Below, one piece after another: positions 2,290 through 50,071 of a stretch of 64,000 bases of DNA (position 1 is its first letter; each line of letters begins with the position of its first letter). The stretch covers positions 6,588-70,587 of IMG/VR virus record IMGVR_UViG_3300042349_000876. The stretch is one strand, 5' to 3'. The DNA comes from a virus. Under the pieces are notes generated by a model. It made no database searches. It saw nothing but the letters and a program-made list of their open reading frames with translations, and was not told the DNA's origin. The position numbers were made by a program, and so were the translations under genes.

Positions 2290-4251
2290 ATGTCTGAGCT
2301 AACTGAAGCAAAAATTCTCGCTTTAGCGACCACCAATGAGACAGGTGCGGTCAAACCTGACGGAAAAACCATTGTTGTTTCAGGAGATGGTACTCTTTCT
2401 GCATTAGGGGTTCCTCCTATTTACGAGGTTCTTAAAGAAACTTCAGAAATAGATAGGTTTGATCCAATTTATTGGACAATCGATGGCCCTTTGTCCATGA
2501 GTTTTTGTATCACAAATTACCCGAACGGTATTGAGTCCAGATTCGTTGCCAGAGCAAAAAACGACTTATGTGGTATCACATGGAAAAGCGAAAACACTCT
2601 TGACCACGAGTTAATTGGATACTCCACAAACCGGGATTATAGGGGGTTGGTTTGGACTTTTGATATAGAACTGGCTCCCACATGCCCTGTGCTAAACCAG
2701 GAAGAGCTAGCCCCCGTCATTACAGTGGAAGCTACGGTAAACGGTCAACCCATTGTTTACTACATTGCATTAAAAAATTATGCGGGGCCTGACACAGATA
2801 AACCTGTCAGGAAAGCAACTATAACAATTGATTGGTCGAATGTTCAAGGCGGTTTCTTCCCTGAAATACCGGTCGATGCCAGCAATATTAATGCAATTTT
2901 CTTCTCAGGAGTTGTTTCAGGATATATAGAAAACGACCCAAGCCCCTTACCTGAGCCAGTAGAAGGTTATATCAGATTAACCAATTTTAGACTGTCGGGC
3001 ACAGGGACAAAGCTTTCCTATAAACGGGCATTTCTACCTCCTCATGAATTCGGAATGTCAACCGGTTATGATGACCAGTACAACCTTAATCCGGAGAGGG
3101 TTGTCAGGAATTGTCAACTTTTGGGTTACAGGGGTTGGATCAACCATTATTGTGGCATGAGCCATTACCCTAACACTTTCTGGAATGCCAACGCCAAACG
3201 TTATGTTAATGCCCCTGCCGGAGACGTACCAGGGGTCAATGCAGCTGCAAGACAATGGCACCTGGAATTTGCGAAGGCTTGTAAAAGAGCAAAATATCTA
3301 CTCATTTTTTCTGTAAGTTACGAGTATTTCAGTCTATTCGCCTTAAATGGAGAATCCGGGTTACCGGACTGGATTCAAAGAGACTGGGATGGTAATCCAA
3401 GCGTAACCGGTTACATTCCTCCTAGCCACTTTTTCAGTTTATGTAATAAAGATGCAATGGACTATTTGCATCAAATTTTTGTAGAATTTGCTGAAATATT
3501 GGCAGAGGCAGAGCTTCCAATTTACATGCAAGTCGGAGAACCTTGGTGGTGGTATAACCCAAAAACCAGCCTACCTTGTGTTTATGATTACCCCACTAAG
3601 TTGGCTTTCAACGCTGCTACTGGCCTATATATGCAAGATATGGGCACAATTACGGAGGCCAAATCTCTAACTCAAACTCCATTTCCTGAGATGTACGCTT
3701 TCTTGCGCAAAACTTTAGGAGAAAGTGTGCAAGACTGTAGGGCAGCCATAAAGAAAGTTTATCCTGATGCTAAAGTTTGCCCTTTGATTTTCTTGCCGAC
3801 CATTTTGGATGAATCTTCAGGCATTATGAACTTTATTAACTACCCCGTAGAGCAATATAAGTACCCTAATTTTGAATTTATTATGACCGAGTGCTATGAT
3901 TGGATCACTTCGAACCAGTTGATCAAATCTTATCTTGCTATAGAAAATGCTATACAAGATTTCGAATACCCACCGGAATTGATACAATACTTGGGAGGTT
4001 TTGTGGACATGTTGTTTAACGATATAGCACTGCGTAAAAAGACCTGGCAAAGAATTATAGGTAACTTAAAGAACAACAAAAGGTATAACATTCAAAAACA
4101 ACATATTTGGGCATACCCTCAGGTCATGAGAGATAGCATCACCATTGTGGACGCTAACGACCTGATTTGCTATTATTTTGGTGACGAGTTGATGGTACCT
4201 ATCAGACAAGACGAACGACTGCTTGAATCGGAAGAGCAACTAAAAATCTAA
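2290..4251 (+). CDS. Tail protein with GTA-type TIM-barrel-like domain
   Basis: RFDPIYWTID...DLCGITW...DH..IGY.T.RDYR, GYDD.YNLNPER and QVGEPWWW recall alphaproteobacterial GTA tail proteins; start taken at ATG 2290. Confidence 0.6.
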   Translation: MSELTEAKILALATTNETGAVKPDGKTIVVSGDGTLSALGVPPIYEVLKETSEIDRFDPIYWTIDGPLSMSFCITNYPNGIESRFVARAKNDLCGITWKSENTLDHELIGYSTNRDYRGLVWTFDIELAPTCPVLNQEELAPVITVEATVNGQPIVYYIALKNYAGPDTDKPVRKATITIDWSNVQGGFFPEIPVDASNINAIFFSGVVSGYIENDPSPLPEPVEGYIRLTNFRLSGTGTKLSYKRAFLPPHEFGMSTGYDDQYNLNPERVVRNCQLLGYRGWINHYCGMSHYPNTFWNANAKRYVNAPAGDVPGVNAAARQWHLEFAKACKRAKYLLIFSVSYEYFSLFALNGESGLPDWIQRDWDGNPSVTGYIPPSHFFSLCNKDAMDYLHQIFVEFAEILAEAELPIYMQVGEPWWWYNPKTSLPCVYDYPTKLAFNAATGLYMQDMGTITEAKSLTQTPFPEMYAFLRKTLGESVQDCRAAIKKVYPDAKVCPLIFLPTILDESSGIMNFINYPVEQYKYPNFEFIMTECYDWITSNQLIKSYLAIENAIQDFEYPPELIQYLGGFVDMLFNDIALRKKTWQRIIGNLKNNKRYNIQKQHIWAYPQVMRDSITIVDANDLICYYFGDELMVPIRQDERLLESEEQLKI

Positions 4252-33388: not shown

Positions 33389-34471
33389 ATGACTGTTTCT
33401 ACTCTTTCTCGCCGCTCAACTAATTCCGGCTGGGAATCTTTCTGTGAATGGGTGACCTCCACCAACAATCGTCTTTATGTTGGCTGGTTTGGCGTCCTGA
33501 TGATTCCAACGTTGCTTGCCGCAACTACTTGCTTCATTGTTGCTTTCATCGCCGCTCCTCCCGTCGACATCGACGGCATTCGTGAACCTGTTGCTGGTTC
33601 TCTTATGTATGGAAACAATATCATCTCCGGTGCTGTTGTTCCCTCTAGCAACGCTATCGGTCTTCACTTCTACCCGATCTGGGAAGCCGCCAGCCTCGAC
33701 GAGTGGCTGTACAACGGCGGTCCTTTCCAGTTGGTGATTTTCCACTTCCTCATCGGCATCTACGCCTACATGGGACGTGAGTGGGAACTCTCCTACCGCC
33801 TGGGCATGCGCCCCTGGATCTGTGTCGCTTACTCTGCCCCGGTTGCCGCAGCCTCAGCTGTATTCCTTGTCTATCCGTTTGGCCAAGGGTCTTTCAGTGA
33901 CGCAATGCCTCTGGGTATCAGCGGAACCTTCAACTACATGTTGGTTTTCCAAGCCGAACATAATATCCTCATGCACCCGTTCCACATGCTCGGGGTTGCT
34001 GGGGTCTTCGGTGGTTCGCTGTTTAGCGCCATGCATGGCTCTCTGGTTACGTCTTCTCTTGTTCGCGAGACCACTGAGAACGAGTCTCAGAACTACGGTT
34101 ACAAGTTTGGTCAAGAAGAAGAGACCTACAACATCGTGGCTGCCCACGGTTACTTTGGACGACTGATTTTCCAATACGCCTCGTTCAACAACAGCCGCAG
34201 CCTGCACTTCTTCCTGGCTGCCTGGCCTGTCGTCGGCATCTGGTTCACCGCCCTGGGCGTGAGCACGATGGCCTTCAACCTGAACGGTTTTAACTTTAAT
34301 CAATCCGTTATGGATAGTCAGGGCCATGTCCTGAATACTTGGGCCGACGTGCTGAACCGCGCTGGTCTCGGCATGGAAGTGATGCACGAGAGAAACGCAC
34401 ACAATTTCCCCCTTGACCTGGCTGCTGCTGGTGTCAGTGAGGTCGCTCTGACTGCCCCAGCCATCGGCTGA
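33389..34471 (+). CDS. psbA: Photosystem II D1 protein
   Basis: Full-length D1 (RLYVGWFG...HNFPLDLA), no intron. Confidence 0.99.
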
Positions 34472-34493
34472 CCCTAGGTAGTTAAAGTTCCTT

Positions 34494-34523
34494 GCCCCTG
34501 GCTTAAACGGTCGGGGGCTTTTT
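34494..34523 (+). terminator. Rho-independent terminator after psbA
   Basis: GCCCCTGGC...GTCGGGGGC then T run. Confidence 0.65.
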
Positions 34524-34553
34524 ATTCGGTGTGTATCTGATCGTAACCTTACT

Positions 34554-35609
34554 ATGACTGCTTCAACCCTTTCTCTTCCTCAACGGGGATGGTTCGATGT
34601 CCTGGATGACTGGCTTAAACGCGATCGCTTTGTCTTTGTGGGCTGGTCTGGACTACTTCTTTTTCCCACTGCTTATTTGGCCCTTGGTGGCTGGCTTACT
34701 GGCACAACGTTTGCTACTAGCTGGTACACCCACGGGCTGGCGTCTAGTTACCTTGAGGGTGCTAATTTCCTCACGGCAGCTGTGTCAACGCCTGCTGACG
34801 CTATGGGTCATTCTCTTCTTCTACTTTGGGGTCCTGAGTCTCAGGGGGATTTCGTCCGCTGGGTCCAACTTGGGGGACTCTGGCCTTTCGTGGCCCTCCA
34901 CGGGGCTTTCGCTCTAATCGGTTTCATGCTCCGTCAGTTTGAGATTGCGCGTTTGGTCGGTATCAGACCTTATAACGCAATCGCGTTCTCTGGCCCTATC
35001 GCAGTATTCGTCTCCGTATTCTTAATGTATCCACTGGGTCAATCCAGTTGGTTCTTCGCCCCTTCTTTCGGTGTCGCGGCAATCTTCCGCTTCCTGCTGT
35101 TCCTGCAGGGCTTCCACAACTGGACCCTGAACCCGTTCCACATGATGGGGGTTGCGGGTATTCTCGGTGGCGCCCTCCTTTGTGCTATTCACGGAGCAAC
35201 CGTAGAAAACACTCTCTACGAGGATGGTGAAAAAGCAAATACCTTCAAGGCATTTGAGCCGACTCAAGAGGAAGAAACCTATTCGATGGTTACCGCCAAC
35301 CGCTTCTGGAGTCAAATTTTCGGTATTGCTTTTAGTAACAAAAGGTGGCTACACTTTTTTATGTTGTTCGTTCCGGTGATGGGTCTGTGGGTGTCATCGA
35401 TTGGAATTATTGGTCTTGCCCTTAATCTTCGTGCCTATGACTTTGTAAGTCAGGAGATTCGTGCAGCGGAAGACCCAGAATTCGAGACTTTTTATACTAA
35501 AAACATTCTTCTAAACGAAGGTCTTCGCGCTTGGATGGCTCCTGTAGACCAACCGCACGAAAACTTCATCTTCCCGGAAGAAGCACTTCCACGAGGCAAC
35601 GCGCTGTGA
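34554..35609 (+). CDS. psbD: Photosystem II D2 protein
   Basis: Full-length D2 ([14 protein letters not shown]...LPRGNAL). Confidence 0.99.
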
Positions 35610-35747: not shown

Positions 35748-35806
35748 TACGTTCATTTGCTATTTGCAAATAGCAAACGGAAGTAGGCACATGCTGAAGG
35801 AACGCG
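35748..35806 (+). promoter_or_regulatory. Glutamine riboswitch (glnA RNA motif)
   Basis: CGTTCA-hairpin-ACGGAAGTAGGC-loop-GCTGAAGGAACGC matches glnA motif architecture. Confidence 0.85.
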
Positions 35807-35833
35807 AAATGTTCATACATTTCGGAGAATCCA

Positions 35834-38875: not shown

Positions 38876-39526
38876 ATGAACGGAACTTTTTCGGAAAATT
38901 CTCTTCAACAATACTCAAACTTAGTTAAAGAGAAAGTAGAATTAAACTACTCTGAGGAAGCAGGTTCGTACGACTTCACCCTCTGCGTCAGGCCTGATGG
39001 CTCTCTCTACGGGACCGGGGGACAATGTAGGAAAGGAACGGAGACTTCTTCGAGAGTTCCTATTCATCAACACAAAAGTCTGAAAGAGGGTGGTTCTTCT
39101 TTCACACCTCTAGAAAAAGCGTTGAGTAAACTTAAAAAACTTGAAAGGAGAATTAAAGACCCTGACTATTCTCCCTCTGATGAGGAACTTGCACGGTACG
39201 GCAGATTAAAAGGAGCGGTTGAGGAAGCACAAAGAAGCTCTGAAAAGAAAGACCGTGAAATAAATCTGCCCCGAAAAGCCCCTATGGACTTAAAAGCCAA
39301 AGTAGATGAAGTCGTTAATAAAAAATCCACACCAAAAAGGGATTTCAAGGACGCATTAGAAAATATGAAAGATGAAATAGATAAAAGGGAGAAAGAAGTT
39401 AATGGGAACTTTGGACTTAACAAGATGTTTCCGGGGCCCTGGCAGACCGCCCAATCCAAGGTTTTAGAAAGTCTAAAAGAAAATTATGACAAAGCAGTCA
39501 AAATCTATAACAATAGATACGTATAA
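38876..39526 (+). CDS. Shared-leader protein with charged helical C-terminus
   Basis: Leader YDFTLCVRPDGSLYGTGGQCRKG. Confidence 0.6.
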   Translation: MNGTFSENSLQQYSNLVKEKVELNYSEEAGSYDFTLCVRPDGSLYGTGGQCRKGTETSSRVPIHQHKSLKEGGSSFTPLEKALSKLKKLERRIKDPDYSPSDEELARYGRLKGAVEEAQRSSEKKDREINLPRKAPMDLKAKVDEVVNKKSTPKRDFKDALENMKDEIDKREKEVNGNFGLNKMFPGPWQTAQSKVLESLKENYDKAVKIYNNRYV

Positions 39527-39593
39527 AGAAGTAACTGAAGAACCGATTGAAATGCTATTCACAGCGCGGTGGAACGTGCCTCAAGTAGCATAA
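39522..39593 (+). pseudogene. Truncated copy of the 42331-42507 small protein family
   Basis: MLFTARWNVPQVA* versus MLFTAKWNIPQAS. Confidence 0.45.
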
Positions 39594-39615
39594 GTGGACG
39601 GTTTCCCGCCTGATT

Positions 39616-39660
39616 GGTTCGGTTTCCACGGTTTACGGGGTCCCTTAAAAACGCTATAGT
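39616..39660 (+). promoter_or_regulatory. GGTTCGG-class promoter of the tRNA/ncRNA array
   Basis: GGTTCGGTTTCC, TTTACG, 17 nt, TATAGT. Confidence 0.7.
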
Positions 39661-39713
39661 TAAAAGGTGGTTGAGAGAGCTCAACCCCGAACCTTGAAAA
39701 TTCAAAATTTATC

Positions 39714-39785
39714 GGGTCTGTAACTCAACGGTAGAGTAACGGGCTTTTAACCTGGAAGTTGTGGGTTCAAATCCCACCAGACCCA
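39714..39785 (+). tRNA. tRNA-Lys(UUU)
   Basis: Cloverleaf GGGTCTG/CAGACCC, loop CTTTTAA. Confidence 0.9.
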
Positions 39786-39865
39786 TCGTCCCGACACCCC
39801 TGGAGTTGTAGGCTTCGTTTTTCGTCGCGGACAAACGTGATGGGCATCACGAAAAACTGCCCCCT

Positions 39866-39948
39866 GCTTGAGTGGCGGAATTGGTAGACGCCCTGGTTTT
39901 AGGTACCAGTGTCCTTGTGACGTGGAGGTTCAAGTCCTCTCTCAAGCA
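39866..39948 (+). tRNA. tRNA-Leu(UAG)
   Basis: GCTTGAG/CTCAAGC, loop TTTAGGT, long variable arm. Confidence 0.92.
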
Positions 39949-39965
39949 TTGCCTTCGGGCAAATT

Positions 39966-40050
39966 GCAGGAAGTGCGGTGCCTCTCTCAGGTCATTGACT
40001 TGGTGAAGCAAAAGAGGATTCCAGGTGCACTTGATCCGGGTCCCTCCTGC
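39966..40050 (+). ncRNA. Unidentified structured RNA between tRNA-Leu and tRNA-Asn
   Basis: Nested stems GCAGG/CCTGC, AAGTGC/GCACTT, CCTCT/AGAGG, CAGGTC/GACTTG. Confidence 0.45.
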
Positions 40051-40056
40051 TATCAA

Positions 40057-40128
40057 TGGCGTGTAGCTCAACGGCAGAGCTGACGGCTGTTAACCGTCCG
40101 GTTGCAGGTTCGAATCCTGCCACGCCAG
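40057..40128 (+). tRNA. tRNA-Asn(GUU)
   Basis: TGGCGTG/CACGCCA, loop CTGTTAA. Confidence 0.92.
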
Positions 40129-40130
40129 TT

Positions 40131-40570
40131 GGGTGCTTGATTCTGAAGCGAATAAGCATTAAACAACGGACGCTCTAATCCGTGCCCATGATCCCCAGAT
40201 GCCATTTGGCCGTTTCCTTAGTCTGGGGTGATAAAAAGGGTCAAACGGCCATTGGGGTTGAGTAGCAAGTAAGGAGCGGTGCTTAGAAAGGAAGCTATTT
40301 GATACTCCCGCTCACCCCACAACCACCCACACTGCTCTGTCGGTGTGGTGCGGCCAGTAGAGATCCAGGATCATTCTCTCTGGTTCGCGTACAAGTCCTG
40401 GGTTCTCTCAGGCCGGGGAAGTGATCCTCCCCGCGCAAGTTCCCGCTCTGCGAAAGCATCGGGCTGACCCACTGCCGGGTCGCGATGGCGGGCAGTTGCC
40501 ATCGTTCCATTTTGCGGTTTGCCTCACCGTCCCGCGTTCTTCGGATCGCCCGAGGGAGAACGGGGCACCT
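40131..40570 (+). ncRNA. Large unidentified structured RNA(s)
   Basis: GC-rich, no credible ORF, dense helices, potential pseudoknots and a loop-loop pair. Confidence 0.6.
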
Positions 40571-40660
40571 GGGAGTGCACCTTGGATGGTGGGCGCGACG
40601 GCGTCAGAGGCGGTTCGATTCCGTCCCTGGGATATGGTGGTTCGATTCCACCCACTCCCT
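40571..40660 (+). ncRNA. tRNA-like RNA with two T-arms and no anticodon loop
   Basis: GGGAGTG/CACTCCC acceptor; two GGTTCGATTCC hairpins. Confidence 0.65.
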
Positions 40661-40686
40661 ATTGCCACTGCATTGCAGCGGCATTT

Positions 40687-40820
40687 GCGAGATTTATCTC
40701 GCCCCTAAGTCCCAGTTCTGGGGTCCTGCATTGGTCAGGGTTACCCTTCCTGGGCCGGAGGAGTTGATCGCCCTTCGCACACCCCCTATGCCTCTCAACG
40801 ATGCACAAATCTGGGGGTCA
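40687..40820 (+). ncRNA. Unidentified structured RNA upstream of tRNA-Thr
   Basis: GCGAGA/TCTCGC, CCCAG/CTGGG, TGCATTG/CGATGCA. Confidence 0.45.
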
Positions 40821-40822
40821 CT

Positions 40823-40894
40823 GCCGGTGTAGTATAAAGGTTATTACAGAACTTTGGTAAAGTTCAAACGACGGTTCAATTCCGCCCACTGGCT
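40823..40894 (+). tRNA. tRNA-Thr(GGU)
   Basis: GCCGGTG/CACTGGC, GAACT-TTGGTAA-AGTTC. Confidence 0.85.
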
Positions 40895-40928
40895 TGGGCT
40901 GACTCGTTCGCTGTATGGTTTAATCAAC

Positions 40929-41438
40929 ATGTTAGAAATTACTGACAATTTTTTAGAGGAAACAGAATTAGAGAACATCAAAAACACTCTCTTAAATACG
41001 AACTTTCCTTGGTTGTATAGCGAATCAAAAGTCTCCCAAAATGACTCTACTCCTCAATTTTTTCACACACTCTGGCACCCTCCTCACGGCAACAATAGCT
41101 CCCACGCAGGGTTGCTAGGTTTTTTCGAGAAAAAGCTAAAAGTAGGGTTGTGGGCCCGTGCTAAATTTAATTTAACTTTGCCCGGTCAGTGTTTGAAACA
41201 AACCGAGTTTCACGTAGATCAGACTCTAAAAGGAGCCAAAACAGCCATTTATTACTTGACGACTACAAATGGTCCGACAGTTTTTAAAGGTTTTGATTCC
41301 GTGGAGTGTGTGAGAAACCGCTTGGTATGTTTTGACTCAAAAATACACCATGCGGCAACTTTACACACAGAGGGTGATGTTGCTCGAATCGTTTTAAACT
41401 TAAATTTCATTCAAAACGAAAATCACGAGACCCTATAG
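40929..41438 (+). CDS. 2OG-Fe(II) oxygenase
   Basis: FHVD, TAIYY..T.NG.T.F, NRLV.FD...H...R..LN.N. Confidence 0.8.
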   Translation: MLEITDNFLEETELENIKNTLLNTNFPWLYSESKVSQNDSTPQFFHTLWHPPHGNNSSHAGLLGFFEKKLKVGLWARAKFNLTLPGQCLKQTEFHVDQTLKGAKTAIYYLTTTNGPTVFKGFDSVECVRNRLVCFDSKIHHAATLHTEGDVARIVLNLNFIQNENHETL

Positions 41439-41500
41439 TGAAGTGGTTATCACGCTACCCTGTCACGGTAGTATCACGAGTTCAAATCTCGTTAGGGTCG
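41429..41500 (+). tRNA. tRNA-Asp(GUC)
   Basis: GACCCTA/TAGGGTC, loop CTGTCAC; overlaps upstream stop codon. Confidence 0.9.
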
Positions 41501-41501
41501 T

Positions 41502-41645
41502 CGGTACTCGTTAGGCAGATAGCCTAGAAGGAGGCCGAAGAGGGTGCAACAAGGAACGTTGCATTAAATGAAGGATCCCCTAAGCTGCATCGTAGATTCA
41601 ACTTTGACGGCCTCGGTCGTTATCGTAGGCAGACATCCTCGCCCT
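41502..41645 (+). ncRNA. Unidentified structured RNA between tRNA-Asp and tRNA-Ile
   Basis: TAGGC/GCCTA, TGCAAC/GTTGCA, TGACGGC/GTCGTTA. Confidence 0.45.
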
Positions 41646-41649
41646 GCTT

Positions 41650-41723
41650 GGAAATATAGCTCAGTTGGTTAGAGCATTCGACTGATAATCGAAAGGTCGC
41701 AAGTTCGAGTCTTGCTATTTCCA
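41650..41723 (+). tRNA. tRNA-Ile(GAU)
   Basis: GGAAATA/TATTTCC, loop CTGATAA. Confidence 0.92.
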
Positions 41724-41741
41724 TTGCCTTCGGGCATTTAT

Positions 41742-41813
41742 GGTCCATTCGTCTAGCGGTTAGGACACCACCCTTTCACGGTGTAGACACGAGTTCGATT
41801 CTCGTATGGACTA
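41742..41813 (+). tRNA. tRNA-Glu(UUC)
   Basis: GGTCCAT/ATGGACT, loop CTTTCAC. Confidence 0.9.
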
Positions 41814-41816
41814 CCT

Positions 41817-41893
41817 ACTCTCTTAGCTCAGCGGATTAGAGCGTCTGACTACGGATCAGAAGGTCGCAAGTTCGAATCTTGCAGAGGGTGCCA
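41817..41893 (+). tRNA. tRNA-Arg(ACG)
   Basis: ACTCTCT/AGAGGGT, loop CTACGGA, encoded CCA. Confidence 0.9.
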
Positions 41894-41984
41894 GGCGGGT
41901 TGGCTGAGTGGCTGAAAGCAGGAGTTTGCTAAACTCCCAGGAGGGTTTACCTCCTCGAAGGTTCGAATCCTTCACCCGCCGCCA
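41894..41984 (+). tRNA. tRNA-Ser(GCU)
   Basis: GGCGGGT/ACCCGCC, loop TTGCTAA, long variable arm, CCA. Confidence 0.92.
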
Positions 41985-42055
41985 CGGGATGTAGTAAAAT
42001 GGTATCACGCTGCGTTTGGGACGCAGAAACGTAGGTTCGATTCCTACCATCCCGA
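41985..42055 (+). tRNA. tRNA-Pro(UGG)
   Basis: CGGGATG/CATCCCG, loop TTTGGGA. Confidence 0.92.
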
Positions 42056-42058
42056 CTC

Positions 42059-42130
42059 GGGGTGCTGGCGCAATGGTAGCGCAGATCCTTTGCAAGGATA
42101 AGGTTATCGGTTCGAGTCCGATGCATTCCA
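42059..42130 (+). tRNA. tRNA-Ala(UGC)
   Basis: GGGGTGC/GCATTCC with G3:U70, loop TTTGCAA. Confidence 0.9.
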
Positions 42131-42149
42131 TTGCCCTTTTGGGCAACAA

Positions 42150-42325
42150 TCTGTCCGACACAGGCGTTCAATTCGCCTTACCTCCACTTTACGGGGGTAA
42201 ACTGGTTATCGACCGGGCAGAGGGTTTGAGAATAAATCTCAACAACATTCGCAAATTCGAGCGCATTGCTGTTGCCGTCTAGGCACTCAATTCGTGACGA
42301 CATACGGGGAGCTTAGCCTCCCCTT
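42150..42325 (+). ncRNA. ssrA: Two-piece (circularly permuted) tmRNA
   Basis: Acceptor piece GAC..GGCGTTCAATTCGCC-TTACCTCCA precedes 5' end GGGGGTAAACTGGTTATCGAC; G3:U70; tag LNNIRKFERIAVAV*. Confidence 0.85.
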
Positions 42326-42330
42326 TATTT

Positions 42331-42507
42331 ATGGATCACCCAATGATGATGCTTTTTACAGCCAAGTGGAATATTCCACAAGCTTCTGAAGCATTAGGCA
42401 AACCTGCTTGTGAAACGAGTTGGGAAGAAACGAAAGAACTTTTTCGCAAGTTCTGTCAAGAACACCCTCCCATTCACGTTTACGAACCTTTAGAAAACCT
42501 AAACTAA
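42331..42507 (+). CDS. Small cyanophage-type protein (MLF.AKWN.P.A family)
   Basis: 58 aa read manually. Confidence 0.55.
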   Translation: MDHPMMMLFTAKWNIPQASEALGKPACETSWEETKELFRKFCQEHPPIHVYEPLENLN

Positions 42508-42672
42508 AACGTTGCTTTTTACTTTACCGATTTATGAGATCGGCCCTGCCAGACACTGCGGGGAGCAGCTCGGACGCTGATATTGCGTCTTAAATTACCT
42601 GAGCCACCCACAAGTGCCGTTGAAATGCGGAACCACACTTTGCGAGGTGGATGTTGAGTTCTATCCGTATTA

Positions 42673-43041
42673 ATGCTTTTTTCTAAACTGAAGGTTCTTT
42701 TTGGGACCGCTGCGATTGCCGGATTGTCTATTCTTTCACCGTTGCCTTCGCAAGCCGCATCTTGCGGTTATGCGAGTCACTACGGGATGGGAGATGGCTA
42801 CCATGGTCAAACCACAGCAAGCGGAGAGCGATTTAACACTTACGCTCACACAGCAGCTCACCCGTCTCTCCCAATGGGAACCCGCCTACGAGTAACCCGT
42901 GGTTCTCGGTCCGTTGTCGTTCGAATCAATGACAGAGGCCCTTACTACGGTGGTCGTCAACTTGACCTCTCCTACGCTGCTTTTAGCCAACTGGCGCCAC
43001 CGAGTAGGGGGGAAATCCACGTCTGTTACTCGCGAGTGTAA
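42673..43041 (+). CDS. rlpA: RlpA-like lytic transglycosylase (DPBB) with signal peptide
   Basis: ASHYG...TASGERF...AAH.SLP.GT...VRINDRGP...DLS.AAF. Confidence 0.9.
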   Translation: MLFSKLKVLFGTAAIAGLSILSPLPSQAASCGYASHYGMGDGYHGQTTASGERFNTYAHTAAHPSLPMGTRLRVTRGSRSVVVRINDRGPYYGGRQLDLSYAAFSQLAPPSRGEIHVCYSRV

Positions 43042-43094
43042 GTTTACGAACTTTGCTTGTGACTATACTGGGTGTGTTACACACCCTTTCTTTC

Positions 43095-43167
43095 GCCACC
43101 ATAGCTCAGGGGTAGAGCGCCATACTTGTAATATGGATGTCCGGGGTTCAAATCCTCCGTGGTGGCT
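43095..43167 (+). tRNA. tRNA-Thr(UGU)
   Basis: GCCACCA/TGGTGGC, loop CTTGTAA. Confidence 0.92.
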
Positions 43168-43170
43168 CTC

Positions 43171-43242
43171 GCGGATATAGTTCAGTGGTAGAACACCATC
43201 CTTCCAAGTTGGGTGTCGCAGGTTCGAATCCTGTTATCCGCT
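43171..43242 (+). tRNA. tRNA-Gly(UCC)
   Basis: GCGGATA/TATCCGC, loop CTTCCAA. Confidence 0.9.
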
Positions 43243-43293
43243 TCCCCACTTCTCTGAGTGGGATGTTTATCCTTTTCTCTATCCCTTTAGAGT

Positions 43294-44172
43294 ATGTTTA
43301 AGTCTATTCTTGCCAGTAGCGTTGCCGCCGTCTCTATTGCAGCGCCCGCTATGGCACAAGTAACCAACGTTAGCCAATTGAAAGACGTTCAACCGACTGA
43401 TTGGGCTTACCAAGCAATTGCCAATCTGATTGAGCGTTACGGGTGCATCGCTGGTTACCCTGACGGAACCTTCAAGCCTGAGCAAGTTGCGACTCGTTCG
43501 GAAGGTGCCGCTCTGGTGAATGCTTGCCTGGACAATATTACAACGTTTTATACCGAAGCCGATGCCCAACTGGCTGCCGCTCTGCGTGCCCAGTTCTCGA
43601 AAGAGCTGGCTGCTACCAACTCGCGCGTCAGTGCTCTTGAACTTGCCGCTGCTCAAAAGGCCCAAGGCGTTGGTAACTACGTTGGTGTCGGCGTTCTGCT
43701 GAACCAGCAAGGTACCGCCGGTAACGGTAAGAGCAATGTTGCTACCGTTGCAGGAGCTACCTTGCAAGCCCGCTATATTGTTAAGGATTTTAATAACGAC
43801 AATTCGGTGTCGGTTCGTCCTTACTTCAACGCTGCTGCTGGCCCGAATAGCTTCATCGGTACTGCCGGTGGCGCTCTGGTGTCTTACGACTGGTCGATTG
43901 CCCGTGCTAAGTCTGGCGTAAGCAAGGCCAACGTGTATGCTGGTGCCGGTTTCCAGGTTCCTTTCACTCAGTATCAGCAAGTGAACTACCAATCGGCCAT
44001 CGGCAACCGTGGTCAGTTCGTTCTGGCTCTGGGTATCGAAGGTCGTGTGACCAACTCGCTGGTTGGTTTTGCTGACCTCAAATTTCCGACGACCAATGCT
44101 GCTAACAGCTATGGTACCGGTGGTGGTACTTACAGCCCCGTGTTCACAACGGGCCTGGGCATTAAATTCTGA
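43294..44172 (+). CDS. SLH-domain outer-membrane beta-barrel protein (Som porin-like N-terminus)
   Basis: Signal peptide; DVQPTDWAYQA...LIERYGCIAGYPDGTF; terminal Phe. Confidence 0.85.
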   Translation: MFKSILASSVAAVSIAAPAMAQVTNVSQLKDVQPTDWAYQAIANLIERYGCIAGYPDGTFKPEQVATRSEGAALVNACLDNITTFYTEADAQLAAALRAQFSKELAATNSRVSALELAAAQKAQGVGNYVGVGVLLNQQGTAGNGKSNVATVAGATLQARYIVKDFNNDNSVSVRPYFNAAAGPNSFIGTAGGALVSYDWSIARAKSGVSKANVYAGAGFQVPFTQYQQVNYQSAIGNRGQFVLALGIEGRVTNSLVGFADLKFPTTNAANSYGTGGGTYSPVFTTGLGIKF

Positions 44173-44227
44173 AGCTAATCGCAAAGACCCAAAAAGTGTG
44201 ACGACTGGCCGCCGTAAGCGGCCTTAC

Positions 44228-44297
44228 CCGTCAGAAGCCAAAGGGAAAGGCACGCAGACAATGCATTCAGTAGTTGGTTCGAGTCCAACCTGACGGA
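44228..44297 (+). ncRNA. tRNA-like RNA with aberrant anticodon arm
   Basis: CCGTCAG/CTGACGG, T-arm GTTGG-TTCGAGT-CCAAC, anticodon arm only GCA-GACAA-TGC. Confidence 0.6.
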
Positions 44298-44314
44298 ATT
44301 TTTATTACACTCGT

Positions 44315-44890
44315 ATGAGCGAATTTTTCTACCGTTTTCCTAGTCCGTTTGTGTATATAACCGAAATTGAAAATCATTCAGAATGGAAAAAACACGTAAA
44401 AAAGTCTGTTAAACGTTGGCAAAATTCTCAAACAAAACCTTTTTCAGAGAAAGGTTCTAATTTGTTGACAAGTTATCATGTTAAAGAACCATTAAACGAA
44501 TTTCTTGACCCTGTTTTCTTAAAAGCTATAGTATGGGACCCGTTGGACAAAGCTTTAGAAGAAGCTGATCTTGCTGCTCAACCTTCTCAATCCTATCTTC
44601 ATAACATTTGGTTTAATAAGTACCCTGAAGGGGGAAGTTTGGGTGCCCATGTTCACCCGAACTCGGAATGGTCTGGAGTGTATATAGTGGAAATGTCTCA
44701 ACCCAACCCAACATTTTTCATGTATAACAGCACATCTAACAGTCCCGCTTTTTGCACTTCTCTAGACACCGAGAAAAGTGCCAAAGAGGGCAACGTTATA
44801 ATCTTCCCTTCTCATTTAATACACTGGGTTCATACAACCTGCGAAAAAAGACTGACAGTATCCTTCAACGTAGGATCGACGTATTCCTGA
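44315..44890 (+). CDS. 2OG-Fe(II) oxygenase (TIGR02466-like)
   Basis: WFN.Y..G....H.HPNS.WSGVY...IFPS.L.H.V...R..VSFN. Confidence 0.8.
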   Translation: MSEFFYRFPSPFVYITEIENHSEWKKHVKKSVKRWQNSQTKPFSEKGSNLLTSYHVKEPLNEFLDPVFLKAIVWDPLDKALEEADLAAQPSQSYLHNIWFNKYPEGGSLGAHVHPNSEWSGVYIVEMSQPNPTFFMYNSTSNSPAFCTSLDTEKSAKEGNVIIFPSHLIHWVHTTCEKRLTVSFNVGSTYS

Positions 44891-44942
44891 TAAATTTCGT
44901 CTAGTTTACCTGTTTCTTATTCACCTATAATATAGGTGTTAA

Positions 44943-45014
44943 GCCCCTATAGCTCAGCGGTAGAGCACCTCGTTTACACCGAGATTGTCGGCGGTTCGAT
45001 CCCGTCTGGGGGCA
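44943..45014 (+). tRNA. tRNA-Val(UAC)
   Basis: GCCCCTA/TGGGGGC, loop TTTACAC. Confidence 0.92.
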
Positions 45015-48923: not shown

Positions 48924-48942
48924 TTCGGTATCCCGAATTTTT

Positions 48943-48988
48943 GGTTCGGTTATCCCCCCTTTACTTTTGGGGGGATTTTTTGTATGCT
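48943..48988 (+). promoter_or_regulatory. GGTTCGG-class promoter (other copies at 50072, 50841, 51149/51171, 52177, 56466, 57362, 58291, 61795)
   Basis: GGTTCGGTWAYCC, -35 TTTACN, 17 nt, TANNNT, usually 6 nt then ATG. Confidence 0.8.
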
Positions 48989-48994
48989 AATACT

Positions 48995-50071
48995 ATGGAA
49001 AACTACCTGCGTCACAACCTGCTAAACTACCTGAACTACTTCGGGCTGGAGCCGCTGGCGGACAAAGACATCCGGGTGTCGAAGGACGAACGGTACCCGA
49101 ACCTGTACAACCTGAAGTACGGTTCGATCCTGGCCGACAAAAACGACCCGGTCGTATGCGCTTGCCGTGGAGCCGTGGTGGAAGACCTTGGTGGCCGCTT
49201 TGAACTGGTGGCTTACGCTTTTGACCGGTTCTTTAACCTGGGTGAATCTCAGGCGGCAGAAATCCATTGGCCTTCGGCCAAAGTGTACGAAAAGTATGAC
49301 GGTTCGTTAATCAAGCTGTTCTATTGGAACGGACAATGGGTTGTTTCCACGTCTGGGTCCGTTGGCGGTGCCGGAAACGTTGGTGAATCAAATAAAACGT
49401 TCGAAGAGCTGTTCTGGGAAACGTTTGATTACCTCGAGTACAAACAGTCGGACTTGGATACGGATAATTGCTACATCTTCGAGTTGTGCTCGCAGTACAA
49501 CCGCATCGTGGTTGATTACCAAGAGCCGGAACTTCGGTTGCTGGCAGTGCGTGACCGTCGCGAGGATTTTAACGAGCTTCCTTTGGAAGATTTCTCAAAA
49601 TCTTTTGACATTGCCCGGTCATATGACATACAATCGTCTAAGATTCTGCAGAAAGTTAATGAGCGGGGAGCCCAGCATGAAGGGTTCATCGTGGTTGACA
49701 AAGACGGAAACCGGATTAAAGTTAAGTCAGATGTTTACGTGCAACTGCACCGTGTTCGCGGTAATGGTGAGCCGGATTTCTCCGAGCTTTATTTGAATGA
49801 TGACCTTGAGGAGTTTTTGCTTCACTTCCCAGATTACCGTCAAAAATTCCAACCGTATCTAGATAAACTAGATGAGTTGAAGGAACAAGTCAACTTTGTA
49901 GTGAAAAATCTGCAGAATCTTTCTCAAAAAGAATTTGCGGCCGAAGTGCTGGCTAAATATCCTAATGTGTCTGGGGCTATGTTTGCAGTACGTGCAGAAA
50001 AGTCTAGAGATTTTTCTCATTATTTGGAGAACATGTTACCAAAACAATTGGATAGAATCCTTGGGATCTGA
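48995..50071 (+). CDS. RNA ligase, T4 Rnl1-like
   Basis: CRG, FDRFFN.GE, EKYDGS (motif I), IFEL, EGFIV, RIKVK. Confidence 0.88.
   Translation: MENYLRHNLLNYLNYFGLEPLADKDIRVSKDERYPNLYNLKYGSILADKNDPVVCACRGAVVEDLGGRFELVAYAFDRFFNLGESQAAEIHWPSAKVYEKYDGSLIKLFYWNGQWVVSTSGSVGGAGNVGESNKTFEELFWETFDYLEYKQSDLDTDNCYIFELCSQYNRIVVDYQEPELRLLAVRDRREDFNELPLEDFSKSFDIARSYDIQSSKILQKVNERGAQHEGFIVVDKDGNRIKVKSDVYVQLHRVRGNGEPDFSELYLNDDLEEFLLHFPDYRQKFQPYLDKLDELKEQVNFVVKNLQNLSQKEFAAEVLAKYPNVSGAMFAVRAEKSRDFSHYLENMLPKQLDRILGI

Follow-up and report, generated by a model that had tools for sequence, protein, structure and literature searches.

The window, by which we mean the whole 64,000-nt stretch of DNA analysed here, comes from a lake cyanophage and carries 20 tRNA genes predicted by ARAGORN, all 20 of them on the + strand. 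Among these genes lies the spacer between tRNA-Asn(GTT) and tRNA-Thr(GGT), of which an earlier note, made from the letters of the DNA alone, had singled out positions 40131-40570 as a large structured non-coding RNA. The features of the region are as follows.

39632-39660, + strand: promoter-like site TTTACG-17 nt-TATAGT, found by consensus scan; it precedes the first tRNA of the array
40057-40128, + strand: tRNA-Asn(GTT), ARAGORN, Rfam tRNA 67.7 bits; 5' boundary of the spacer
40129-40822, + strand: spacer of 692 nt, the interval from tRNA-Asn to tRNA-Thr
40129-40192, + strand: module A, a linker and one hairpin (ACGGA...TCCGT, 40166-40183), read from the sequence
40193-40250, + strand: module B, an H-type pseudoknot, from 7 distinct sequences at 11 loci
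40252-40320, + strand: module C, a long irregular hairpin, predicted single-sequence fold (-20.3 kcal/mol)
40319-40438, + strand: module D, four hairpins, alignment A2 of 14 distinct sequences
40439-40570, + strand: module group E', four lineage-specific hairpins, from sequence and predicted fold
40571-40660, + strand: T2, a tRNA-shaped RNA, called tRNA-Leu(CAG) by ARAGORN; Rfam tRNA-Sec 22.1 bits (cut-off 47)
40655-40782, + strand: D2, a weak match to a diverged second D copy, model R1, 15.7 bits, E ~0.008 (filters off, full length)
40782-40818, + strand: abiF RNA motif RF03085, 53.7 bits (gathering score 37), model positions 1-37; it ends 4 nt before tRNA-Thr
40823-40894, + strand: tRNA-Thr(GGT), ARAGORN, Rfam tRNA 57 bits; 3' boundary of the spacer

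The description of the stretch as GC-rich and non-coding agrees with our results: the GC content is 0.58-0.63 in the spacer region against ~0.42 in the genes on either side, the longest of the ORFs that overlap the spacer measure 71-115 aa, and five overlapping ORFs gave no Pfam match at E <= 1. All the sequence features that the earlier note listed are present in the letters of the window at the positions it gave. By itself, the folding energy (MFE z-score of -1.8 for the + strand and -2.1 for the - strand) indicates structure no better than chance and does not separate the strands. The consensus scan for promoters found 5 sites where 2.6 were expected, which lends weak support to the site at 39632-39660; judged from its sequence, this site is likely to be the start of a multi-tRNA transcript, and a TATAGT/TATAAT-like hexamer was also seen by eye ahead of the RNA cassette in related loci.

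Positions 39500-43200 were scanned with cmscan against 4227 Rfam families at E <= 10. No match was obtained within 40180-40570, and over 40131-40570 there was neither a match to the tRNA clan nor an ARAGORN tRNA. The models of GOLLD, ROOL, manA and wcaG all fail at this threshold, in keeping with the first reading of the sequence, in which no known large phage or cyanophage RNA could be matched. The scan supports the novelty proposed in that reading for 40180-40570 but not for the 3' end of an RNA extended to 40820; this end is the abiF motif, which lies outside 40131-40570 and had not been recognised.

The first of the two pseudoknots that had been proposed is borne out by comparison. In module B, stem 1 pairs 40193-40199 with 40222-40228 (CCCCAGA/TCTGGGG) and stem 2 pairs 40208-40215 with 40243-40250, the letters being (T)GGCCGTTT at 40207-40215 and AAACGGCC(A) at 40243-40251. 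All 105 of the 105 stem cells are paired in the seven distinct sequences, against 33-56% in a slid-partner control, and two-sided changes occur in 3/7 pairs of stem 1 and 3/8 pairs of stem 2, where the variants GGCCG/CGGCC, GGUAG/CUACC, GCUGG/CCAGC and GUUGG/CCAAC were found. The loops UGCCAUUU, UUUCC-UAG and UGAUAAAAAGGG are kept across the relatives. As the search pattern fixed the loop letters alone, the pairing of the stems was not selected for; this pattern took the place of an earlier one with partly fixed stems, which had given no matches in viral contigs. On this comparative evidence B is an H-type pseudoknot, with two interleaved stems each backed by covariation. In most loci B is located behind a tRNA, after a linker of 30-45 nt.

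Module D consists of hairpins H1 (40327-40348), H2 (40350-40388), H3 (40395-40413, preceded by an invariant AAGUCC) and H4 (40414-40433). The loop of H1, UGCUCUGUCG when two invariant closing pairs are counted, is identical in 14/14 D copies. Over the 29 pairs of alignment A2, 98.8% of the cells are paired (36-52% in slid controls) and 14 of the 29 pairs show two-sided changes, a number equalled by none of 500 shuffles of the 14 distinct sequences. Model R1 gives the copy in the window 108.9 bits, and four additional members that were absent from its training set, having been located by the abiF pattern alone, score 72-102 bits. G-U pairs, such as that of column 35-79 in 8/14 sequences, make the structure fit the + strand only. 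Judged from these alignments, B and D are real conserved structures of the + strand. The second proposed pseudoknot, a contact between CCAGGA (40365-40370) and TCCTGG (40396-40401), is contradicted, because TCCTGG forms the 5' side of a covarying local hairpin and the CCAGGA loop is conserved in none of 13 relatives.

The remaining parts of the 440 nt are described from the window itself. At the position of A, between the tRNA and B, other phages have a distinct linker of 30-45 nt that starts with TTGG. The predicted stem of C pairs TGGGGTTGAG (UGGGGUUGAG) at 40253-40262 with CTCACCCCA (CUCACCCCA) at 40311-40319 and encloses GCAAGUAAGGAG; where the window has C, a three-way junction of another kind follows B in other phages, and homology of C with this junction in the L255-type loci is not claimed, as the folds differ. 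In E', UGC/GCA closes the GAAA loop (40452-40455) of hairpin a (40442-40463); next come two adjacent hairpins, b (40466-40481) and c (40482-40505), whose loops are complementary (ACTGCC at 40471-40476 and GGCAGT at 40491-40496), and the terminal hairpin d (~40529-40566) abuts T2. Hairpin c resembles a terminator; however, its T-run is weak, and it is missing from an RNA contig of a relative. Searches by nhmmer with A, C, E', F and the spacers sp1 and sp4 gave no match at E <= 0.05 in ~130 viral and metagenome loci, such that the covariation anticipated for the whole stretch was obtained for B and D but not for A, C and E', for which no assembled homologs were found. Since A, C, E' and D2 are without assembled homologs, the structure given for roughly half of the 440 nt comes from the folding of a single sequence.

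T2, which follows E', has a predicted fold with an acceptor stem of 7 bp, a D-like stem of 4 bp and, at the position of the anticodon arm, a stem of 5 bp that closes a loop of 4 nt; two further hairpins resemble T arms (GGCGG-UUCGAUU-CCGUC and GGUGG-UUCGAUU-CCACC). The element is kept in S-CREM1, L092 and phage B3, and of its 26 predicted pairs 8 show compensating two-sided changes in the four sequences. With no 7-nt anticodon loop in the four-sequence consensus fold and a tRNA-model score under the cut-off, T2 is, as modelled, a non-decoding element, and it is likely to be a processing site that divides the spacer. Beyond T2, D2 adjoins the abiF motif on its 5' side, and its 3' part (GGCCGGAGGAGUUGAUCGCCCUUC) bears a weak similarity to hairpin 4 of the D copy in L028. 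The loop of the abiF motif in the window, GCCUCUCAACGAUGC, does not differ from the family consensus.

In other phages, freshwater contigs among them, the same modules appear in different combinations. B is joined by a tRNA-like element, motif X and abiF in S-SZBM1 and by D and abiF in L028; the loci of the type of L082, L122, L123 and L124 have X, D, E and abiF; and those of the L255 type have a tRNA and B with a different junction. In S-CREM1 and contig G002:C38 the backbone tRNA-Leu(TAG)...tRNA-Asn(GTT)...abiF-tRNA is kept, with ~30 nt in place of the 653 nt found in the window. The best cover of the spacer by any phage record was 15%. S-CBWM1, which by its primase (56% identity) is the nearest of the isolates, lacks both D and abiF, D was found in none of four isolate phage genomes, and a search for related loci with the neighbouring phrog_274 protein gave nine pattern matches, none of them confirmed. 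In L028, L082, L122, L123 and L124 the D-abiF cassette lies outside a tRNA array: a gene and a hexamer resembling a promoter precede it, and it is followed by no more than a tRNA-like element or a single odd tRNA call.

Contigs from four lake RNA runs (94-490 nt) point in the same direction: they carry B, D with E', 40465-40510 and 40513-40569 joined to other flanks. The pieces recovered were 40318-40509, 40465-40510 and 40513-40569, those of E' at 96-100% identity in 3 to 4 independent runs, and the contigs break at the module borders 40318, 40465, 40510-40513 and 40569. In one contig UUCG replaces GAAA at 40452-40455 and the hairpin is kept. These data are contigs that give no transcript ends, they may include carried-over DNA, and the runs were chosen for the spacer. 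No contig of the four runs covered the bins from 40816 to 41500, which include the gene at 40929-41438; this is neutral with regard to expression because of this choice of runs and because only contigs are available.

Taken together, the 440 nt make up most of a 692-nt spacer that occupies one slot of a cyanophage tRNA operon, from tRNA-Asn(GTT) to the abiF-motif RNA, and this spacer is a chain of small, separately folding and evolutionarily exchangeable modules (A, B, C, D, E', T2, D2 and abiF). Of the two options left by the earlier note, one RNA of ~700 nt or a string of novel RNAs, the second is the one supported. According to the mechanism that we propose, the whole chain would be co-transcribed with the tRNAs from the site at 39632-39660, and RNase P and RNase Z would cut at tRNA-Asn, T2 and tRNA-Thr, cleavage at T2 being assumed from its acceptor and T-arm shape only. 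The cuts would release an RNA of ~440 nt (A to E') and another of ~160 nt (D2-abiF), the 3' end of which would lie just past the abiF hairpin.

The abiF motif may provide a link to a function. It was found downstream of D in 18/18 distinct D copies. In 16 of these the distance is 17-147 nt, in L124 it is larger (located by eye), and in the window it is 362 nt, with E', T2 and D2 in between and D2 adjacent to abiF. The D-abiF unit of other loci is therefore broken or duplicated in the window. Among 106 viral abiF hairpins, an ARAGORN tRNA comes directly after 17, a T-loop-like element after 8 and a U-run after 44; the figures for 88 bacterial hairpins are 1, 4 and 69. In the window a tRNA, not an abiF (Abi_2) gene, lies downstream of the motif. 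No Abi_2 domain (PF07751) was found in five phage records, three deposited as complete and one more 100% complete by CheckV; as the record of this phage, G000, is 32% complete, the absence of AbiF from this phage is not proven.

AbiF belongs to the HEPN RNases and is the presumed ancestor of Cas13. In three reports (bioRxiv 10.1101/2025.04.15.648962; PMC12737573; PMC13064643), AbiF is described as being neutralised by the abiF RNA, and according to the last of them a phage hairpin is able to inhibit AbiF (PMC13064643). Of the scaffold, decoy and ribozyme roles suggested at first, the link to abiF favours the decoy. The D-abiF RNA would bind an AbiF-type HEPN RNase of the host as a surrogate antitoxin, such that abortive infection would be blocked, while the remaining modules would stabilise the RNA or act as further protein-binding decoys. 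To the joint reading, that is, a chain of exchangeable modules co-transcribed with the tRNAs, released by the tRNA enzymes and containing a D-abiF decoy antitoxin against host AbiF, we assign a probability of about 0.6. More tentatively, one could imagine the tRNA operons of freshwater cyanophages as launch pads for anti-defence RNAs, in which the spacer would be an 'anti-defence RNA island', the excised D-abiF a universal surrogate antitoxin against AbiF, and B, motif X, pseudoknot E and T2 further decoys for RNA-binding defence proteins.

The decoy could be dispensed with if the modules were cis-acting punctuation of the tRNA precursor, providing spacing, guiding or blocking of RNases, or end protection, with no function in trans and with abiF as no more than a stable 3' stem. 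Every module is indeed on the tRNA strand and flanked by tRNAs or elements resembling them, B is mostly found behind a tRNA and a linker, and the content of the slot is free in length and kind. We nevertheless consider this unlikely: the loop letters are strongly kept, both in the H1 loop of D and in the abiF loop with its bacterial consensus, which argues against mere spacers, as these need shape and not sequence; the D-abiF cassette occurs outside tRNA arrays in the five loci named above; and the bacterial abiF motif has a known protein partner. A single globally folded RNA with long-range tertiary contacts, of ~440 nt or of ~700 nt up to 40820 and comparable to GOLLD or ROOL, appears improbable. 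It would account for a contiguous GC-rich stretch between two tRNAs, for the 5'-to-3' order B, D, abiF that L028 shares with the window, for ACUGCC and GGCAGU loops that could kiss, and for the one RNA-library contig that covers 40318-40509. Against this, the stretch as a whole is conserved in no relative, its modules are found singly and in other orders, the slot shrinks to ~30 nt in S-CREM1 and G002:C38, and a conserved tRNA-shaped element, T2, sits within the proposed 700 nt; moreover, the RNA contigs end exactly at module borders and then continue into other sequence, the CCAGGA/TCCTGG contact is contradicted, and neither GOLLD nor ROOL matches.

We give very little credence to the modules being ligand-sensing or regulatory elements, similar to riboswitches, that control read-through or the stability of downstream tRNAs or genes. 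In favour of such elements are the invariant loops and A-rich third loop of the pseudoknot B and, in S-CREM1, the annotated manA in the adjoining slot of the shared backbone, from tRNA-Leu to tRNA-Asn; however, no riboswitch family matched at E <= 10, the downstream gene is inconsistent between loci, and no terminator or ribosome-site alternative was seen, the sole terminator-like hairpin being that at 40482-40505 with its weak T-run. Equally hard to credit is non-functional filler, made of decayed tRNA genes or recombination scars that fold through their GC-richness, for although the folding energy is no better than that of shuffles, A, C and E' lack assembled homologs and the slot is almost empty in relatives, the compensating changes contradict it for B, D and T2, no tRNA model matches 40131-40570 at E <= 10, and the E' pieces recur nearly unchanged in the lake RNA runs, where the swap of GAAA to UUCG keeps the hairpin.

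Returning to the decoy antitoxin, a target for it may exist. Abi_2 was over the cut-off in 31/401 sampled Cyanobacteriota genomes, which may not be picocyanobacteria. A simple regular expression for the abiF loop found nothing in ten cyanobacterial AbiF loci; the Rfam abiF model detected diverged hairpins upstream in 6 of the 10 best cyanobacterial Abi_2 loci, one of them over the gathering score. These abiF-like hairpins score 27-43 bits and the phage copy 54; from a tailored decoy one might expect a closer likeness to the RNA of the host itself, and the scores count against the decoy reading in this respect. The cyanophage-type abiF pattern was found at nine loci in 185,579 species genomes, none of them titled as a cyanobacterium. 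G002, titled Acidimicrobiaceae, has a phage-like tRNA array and is likely to be a misbinned phage contig, and the MAGs titled Aquiluna and Methylacidiphilales in which the D-abiF cassette is present may likewise hold misbinned phage loci.

It is long established that phage tRNA clusters hold extra RNAs, such as RNAC and RNAD of T4 and the manA and wcaG RNAs, the last two of which have been proposed to be riboswitch-like in cyanophages. By description, T4 RNAC and RNAD are similar to the modules in being small non-tRNA RNAs within a tRNA cluster, on the tRNA strand, and they are the model for the release of extra RNAs by tRNA-processing enzymes; they are two, whereas at least seven modules are found here, shuffled between phages and one of them a known antitoxin motif. 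The manA (RF01745) and wcaG (RF01761) RNAs are also orphan structured RNAs of cyanophage tRNA arrays, but their models miss the window at E <= 10, and the folds and conserved letters of B and D are unlike theirs. GOLLD and ROOL lie near tRNAs and in phages (PMC5737381); unlike the spacer, they are conserved as single large units.

With the bacterial abiF RNA (AbiFr, RCd22), the antitoxin of the type III AbiF system, the copy in the window shares the full model and the consensus loop, and its hairpin would likewise be at the 3' end of the RNA. The bacterial RNA has a terminator-like U-run on the 3' side of the hairpin and the window has a tRNA there, an arrangement that suggests that RNase P would set the 3' end; in addition, the phage copy carries on its 5' side a phage-specific domain, module D, which had no match in 100 bacterial abiF loci, and no Abi_2 gene was found in the five records. 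The closest parallel to the proposed way of working is by analogy the pseudo-ToxI of phage PhiTE, presented in PMC3475682 as a phage-borne type III antitoxin RNA without toxin that allows escape from abortive infection. Pseudo-ToxI is directed at ToxN and not at a HEPN AbiF, it is made of 36-nt unit repeats, and its function was established by genetics, whereas that of D-abiF is deduced here.

Searches of the full-text literature yielded no account of B, of D or of the arrangement of abiF with a tRNA, although either module may be among the 8,495 IMG/VR RNA candidates of PMC10690425. B and D are two well-supported folds new to Rfam 15, and the window shows that tRNA-cluster spacers of this type are built from exchangeable modules and are not single large RNAs. 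D is tied, without exception so far, to an AbiF antitoxin RNA, in phages without AbiF in the records tested, and this link turns the problem of an orphan RNA into a testable hypothesis of RNA counter-defence. Partial systems exist in the isolates S-SZBM1 and S-CREM1 on Synechococcus CB0101, which makes such a test feasible; for S-CREM1, the abiF motif had already been reported by an Rfam scan, without the context of the tRNA or of module D (PMC9964418).

The virus is a cyanophage, represented by a 70.6-kb IMG/VR record rated 32% complete; it carries photosystem II genes, a glutamine riboswitch and a primase 56% identical to the counterpart in Synechococcus phage S-CBWM1, and lake-water metagenomes hold DNA near-identical to the window. 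ARAGORN called 19 tRNA genes and one tmRNA-like element, on the + strand throughout and mostly in an array at 39714-45014. The space between tRNA-Asn and tRNA-Thr in this array measures 692 nt, and the 440-nt stretch within it (40131-40570) is a non-coding, + strand chain of modules.

Features of the window discussed in the text
33389-35609, two photosystem II genes of the D1 family
35748-35808, glutamine riboswitch
40057-40128, + strand, tRNA-Asn(GTT), 5' neighbour of the 440-nt stretch
40193-40250, + strand, module B, H-type pseudoknot
40319-40438, + strand, module D, four hairpins with 29 pairs (RNAalifold)
40571-40660, + strand, 3' neighbour of the stretch, the odd ARAGORN call 'tRNA-Leu(CAG)'; here module T2, tRNA-shaped, conserved in S-CREM1, contig L092 and phage B3
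40655-40782, + strand, D2, weak match (15.7 bits, E about 0.008) to R1, the covariance model of module D

The sequence elements named in the earlier note were all found at their positions, and the stretch is GC-rich as described there (0.58-0.63 vs about 0.42 for the adjacent genes). The ORFs overlapping this area measure 71-115 aa, nothing unusual for GC-rich DNA, and none of the five tested had a Pfam match at E <= 1, in agreement with the view that the stretch holds no credible ORF. An Rfam search (Rfam 15, 4227 families, permissive filters, E <= 10) returned nothing inside 40180-40570. Since the folding energy was unremarkable (z = -1.8 on the + strand and -2.1 on the - strand), the case for structure must rest on comparison. 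BLAST against 50,697 phage records recovered short pieces of the spacer only: S-SZBM1 matched at the first pseudoknot and over the final 45 nt, S-SRM01 over the final 41 nt, and S-CREM1, B3 and B23 at 40567-40652 of the window. Relatives were collected with patterns of conserved loop letters over public collections, which gave at least 117 viral loci for the abiF loop, six viral and nine metagenome loci for module D, and nine viral loci for pseudoknot B.

Modules B and D show strong covariation. The set for B comprised 11 loci including the window, reduced to seven distinct sequences by removing four duplicates of L255, and its search pattern fixed the loop letters alone, with one strand of each stem lying outside it (5' for stem 1, 3' for stem 2). 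All 105 stem cells held standard pairs, against 33-56% when partners were slid by 1-3 nt, although the register of stem 2 was picked sequence by sequence with a 0-2-nt bulge, which slightly favours pairing. Both stems occur in paired variants (CCCCAGA/UCUGGGG, CUCCAGA, CCUCAGA and CUCAAGG/CCUUGAG in stem 1; GGCCG/CGGCC, GGUAG/CUACC, GCUGG/CCAGC and GUUGG/CCAAC in stem 2). The H-type pseudoknot proposed from the sequence is real. For D, 16 loci gave 14 distinct sequences after removal of L250 (= L248) and L251 (= L028); 98.8% of 405 cells were paired, against 36-52% in slid controls, with changes on both sides in 14 of the 29 pairs, and on four of five measures none of 500 shuffles reached the observed values. 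The first loop, UGCUCUGUCG when its two closing pairs are included, is invariant, as is AAGUCC. R1 recognized four extra members that had been gathered solely through the abiF pattern (L085, 73.8 bits; L270, 101.9; L265, 96.2; L267, 72.5). A second pseudoknot had been proposed between CCAGGA (40365) and TCCTGG (40396), and the D alignment contradicts it: TCCTGG is the 5' strand of the covarying hairpin 3 (CCUGG/CCAGG, CCUGU/GCAGG, CCUGCC/GGCAGG), and the loop holding CCAGGA is unrelated in all 13 other D sequences.

The chain is divided by T2. Its consensus fold combines an acceptor stem with a D-like stem and two T-arm-like hairpins, and in place of the anticodon arm there is a 5-bp stem capped by a 4-nt loop. 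Eight of its 26 pairs are kept through changes on both sides (four sequences), and copies lie in unannotated gaps of S-CREM1 (L003 2505-2594) and phage B3 (L263 about 1497-1590), as well as on contig L092. The ARAGORN reading as tRNA-Leu(CAG) was rejected, as Rfam did not accept T2 as a tRNA and it has no anticodon loop. D2, judged by its match to R1, looks like a diverged second copy of D directly 5' of abiF.

For module A (40129-40192), module C (40252-40320) and module group E' (40439-40570), nhmmer gave no homolog among some 130 loci of viral and metagenome origin. Contigs of 94-490 nt from four lake metatranscriptome runs of four studies, which as contigs alone can demonstrate neither ends nor transcription, cover 40189-40240, 40318-40433/40451/40509, 40465-40510 and 40513-40569, differing from the window at 0-7 positions each, and each piece passes into window-unlike sequence precisely at module borders. 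One replaces GAAA at 40452-40455 by UUCG, an exchange between stable tetraloops that supports the hairpin proposed there, and another lacks 40452-40512.

The reading of the stretch as one large RNA was not borne out. The backbone tRNA-Leu(TAG)...tRNA-Asn(GTT)...abiF-tRNA is common to the window, S-CREM1 and contig G002:C38, and the distance from tRNA-Asn to abiF is about 30 nt in the latter two vs 653 nt in the window. Elsewhere the modules recur in other combinations: S-SZBM1 has the order tRNA-B-tRNA-like-X-abiF-tRNA, L255-type contigs have tRNA-B and then a different junction, and L028, L082, L122-L124 and L245-L254 carry, 3' of a gene, the cassette [motif X or B]-D-[pseudoknot E]-abiF-[tRNA-like], preceded in most printed loci by a TATAGT- or TATAAT-like hexamer. 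Given these differing module sets and the 30-nt slot, the 440 nt are a slot expanded by exchangeable modules and not one conserved RNA. B and D are absent from Rfam 15; the list of 8,495 unnamed IMG/VR candidates in PMC10690425 may include them.

Two further motifs come from other loci. Motif X (AGAGG-stem-CYCUG-[variable hairpin]-CAC-stem'-CCAUC), which the window lacks, has no Rfam match and usually stands immediately 5' of module D or abiF; inspection by eye shows covariation in its closing stem (GCAAG/CUUGC, UCAGG/CCUGA, UUAAG/CUUAA). Module E, between D and abiF, has two hairpins and is likely a pseudoknot, covarying by eye, in which the first loop (GGUCC, GAUUC, GAUCC) complements a stretch 3' of the second hairpin (GGACC, GGAUC); E' of the window has no clear kinship to it.

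Loci carrying motif X and module E
Motif X: L002 2640-2700; L004 2640-2700; L082 2535-2600 (- strand)
Motif X, further loci: L122, L123, L124, L245-L249, L253, L254, L257
Module E: L082 about 2350-2410 (- strand); L122, L123, L124, L246, L247, L249, L252, L253

Immediately ahead of tRNA-Thr and flush with it, the final 37 nt form a bona fide abiF hairpin with a full-length Rfam match (53.7 bits vs a gathering score of 37) and a loop, GCCUCUCAACGAUGC, exactly that of the family consensus. D is strictly coupled to it: all 18 distinct D copies have an abiF motif downstream, at 17-147 nt in 16 of them, at 362 nt in the window, where D2 adjoins, and farther downstream, placed by eye, in L124. An inserted hairpin in the abiF loop accompanies six of the 18. 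Such variants (L122, L124, L246, L247, L249, L253, L254), in which a 15-45-nt hairpin replaces the loop letters CUCAAC, keep CU...GAUGC-CAAAC and the outer stem and are missed by the Rfam model. D was not found in 100 bacterial loci with the abiF loop, nor in four isolate cyanophage genomes. Among the matches listed, the element directly 3' of 106 viral abiF hairpins was an ARAGORN tRNA in 17 (13 of them tRNA-Arg), a T-loop-like element in eight and a U-run in 44; for 88 bacterial hairpins the counts were 1, 4 and 69, and bacterial copies mostly continue from the U-run into the abiF gene. In many phage contigs (L009, L012, L024, L037, L042, L060, L075, L076, L092, L106, L114, L118, L120) the hairpin lies 4-6 nt 5' of a tRNA, as at 40782-40822 of the window.

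The abiF RNA is described as the antitoxin of AbiF, a HEPN RNase that it blocks and that a phage cos-site hairpin is also able to inhibit (10.1101/2025.04.15.648962; PMC12737573; PMC13064643), and ToxIN offers a precedent for a phage RNA mimicking a type III antitoxin (PMC3475682). The motif in S-CREM1 was already known from an Rfam scan, published without tRNA or module context and without an antitoxin reading (PMC9964418). The Abi_2 protein domain (PF07751) was not found in five phage records; it scored above cut-off in 31 of 401 sampled Cyanobacteriota genomes, and diverged abiF hairpins lie upstream of it in six of the 10 best loci. We propose that the modules would be co-transcribed with the tRNAs and cut out by RNases P and Z, and that the D-abiF RNA could act as a decoy against a host AbiF. 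T4 RNA ligase mends tRNAs cleaved by host nucleases, and an RNA ligase gene at 48941-50071, between both tRNA clusters (phrog_562, 'RNA ligase and tail fiber attachment catalyst', E 1e-47), may be tied to the same arms race.

A further structured spacer of the array, at 41501-41648 from tRNA-Asp to tRNA-Ile, has conserved counterparts in L253 (E 1e-12) and L123. It opens with the hairpin CGUUAGGCAGAUAGCCUAGAAGG; this hairpin is found immediately 5' of pseudoknot B in S-SZBM1 and within motif X in L122 and L123. The neighbouring tRNA-Leu(TAG) to tRNA-Asn slot (39950-40056), occupied in S-CREM1 by a manA RNA, has nhmmer matches in L106, L108 and L094 and contains a GCAGGAAGUG box, also present in spacers of S-SRM01 and S-SZBM1 and in RNA-library contigs, there fused to the module 40465-40510. 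At 42096-42407, ARAGORN called a permuted tmRNA including the tag peptide, with a partial Rfam match to cyano_tmRNA at 42151-42221 (41.2 bits vs 70), and this may be a tmRNA-like fragment within the array. Cyanophage-type tRNA arrays or D-abiF cassettes also occur on contigs filed under MAG titles of Acidimicrobiaceae, Aquiluna, Methylacidiphilales and Bacteroidetes (L271/L352, which is G002:C38, L272, L265, L267 and L270); misbinning of phage DNA may account for them, with G002:C38 as the clearest case.
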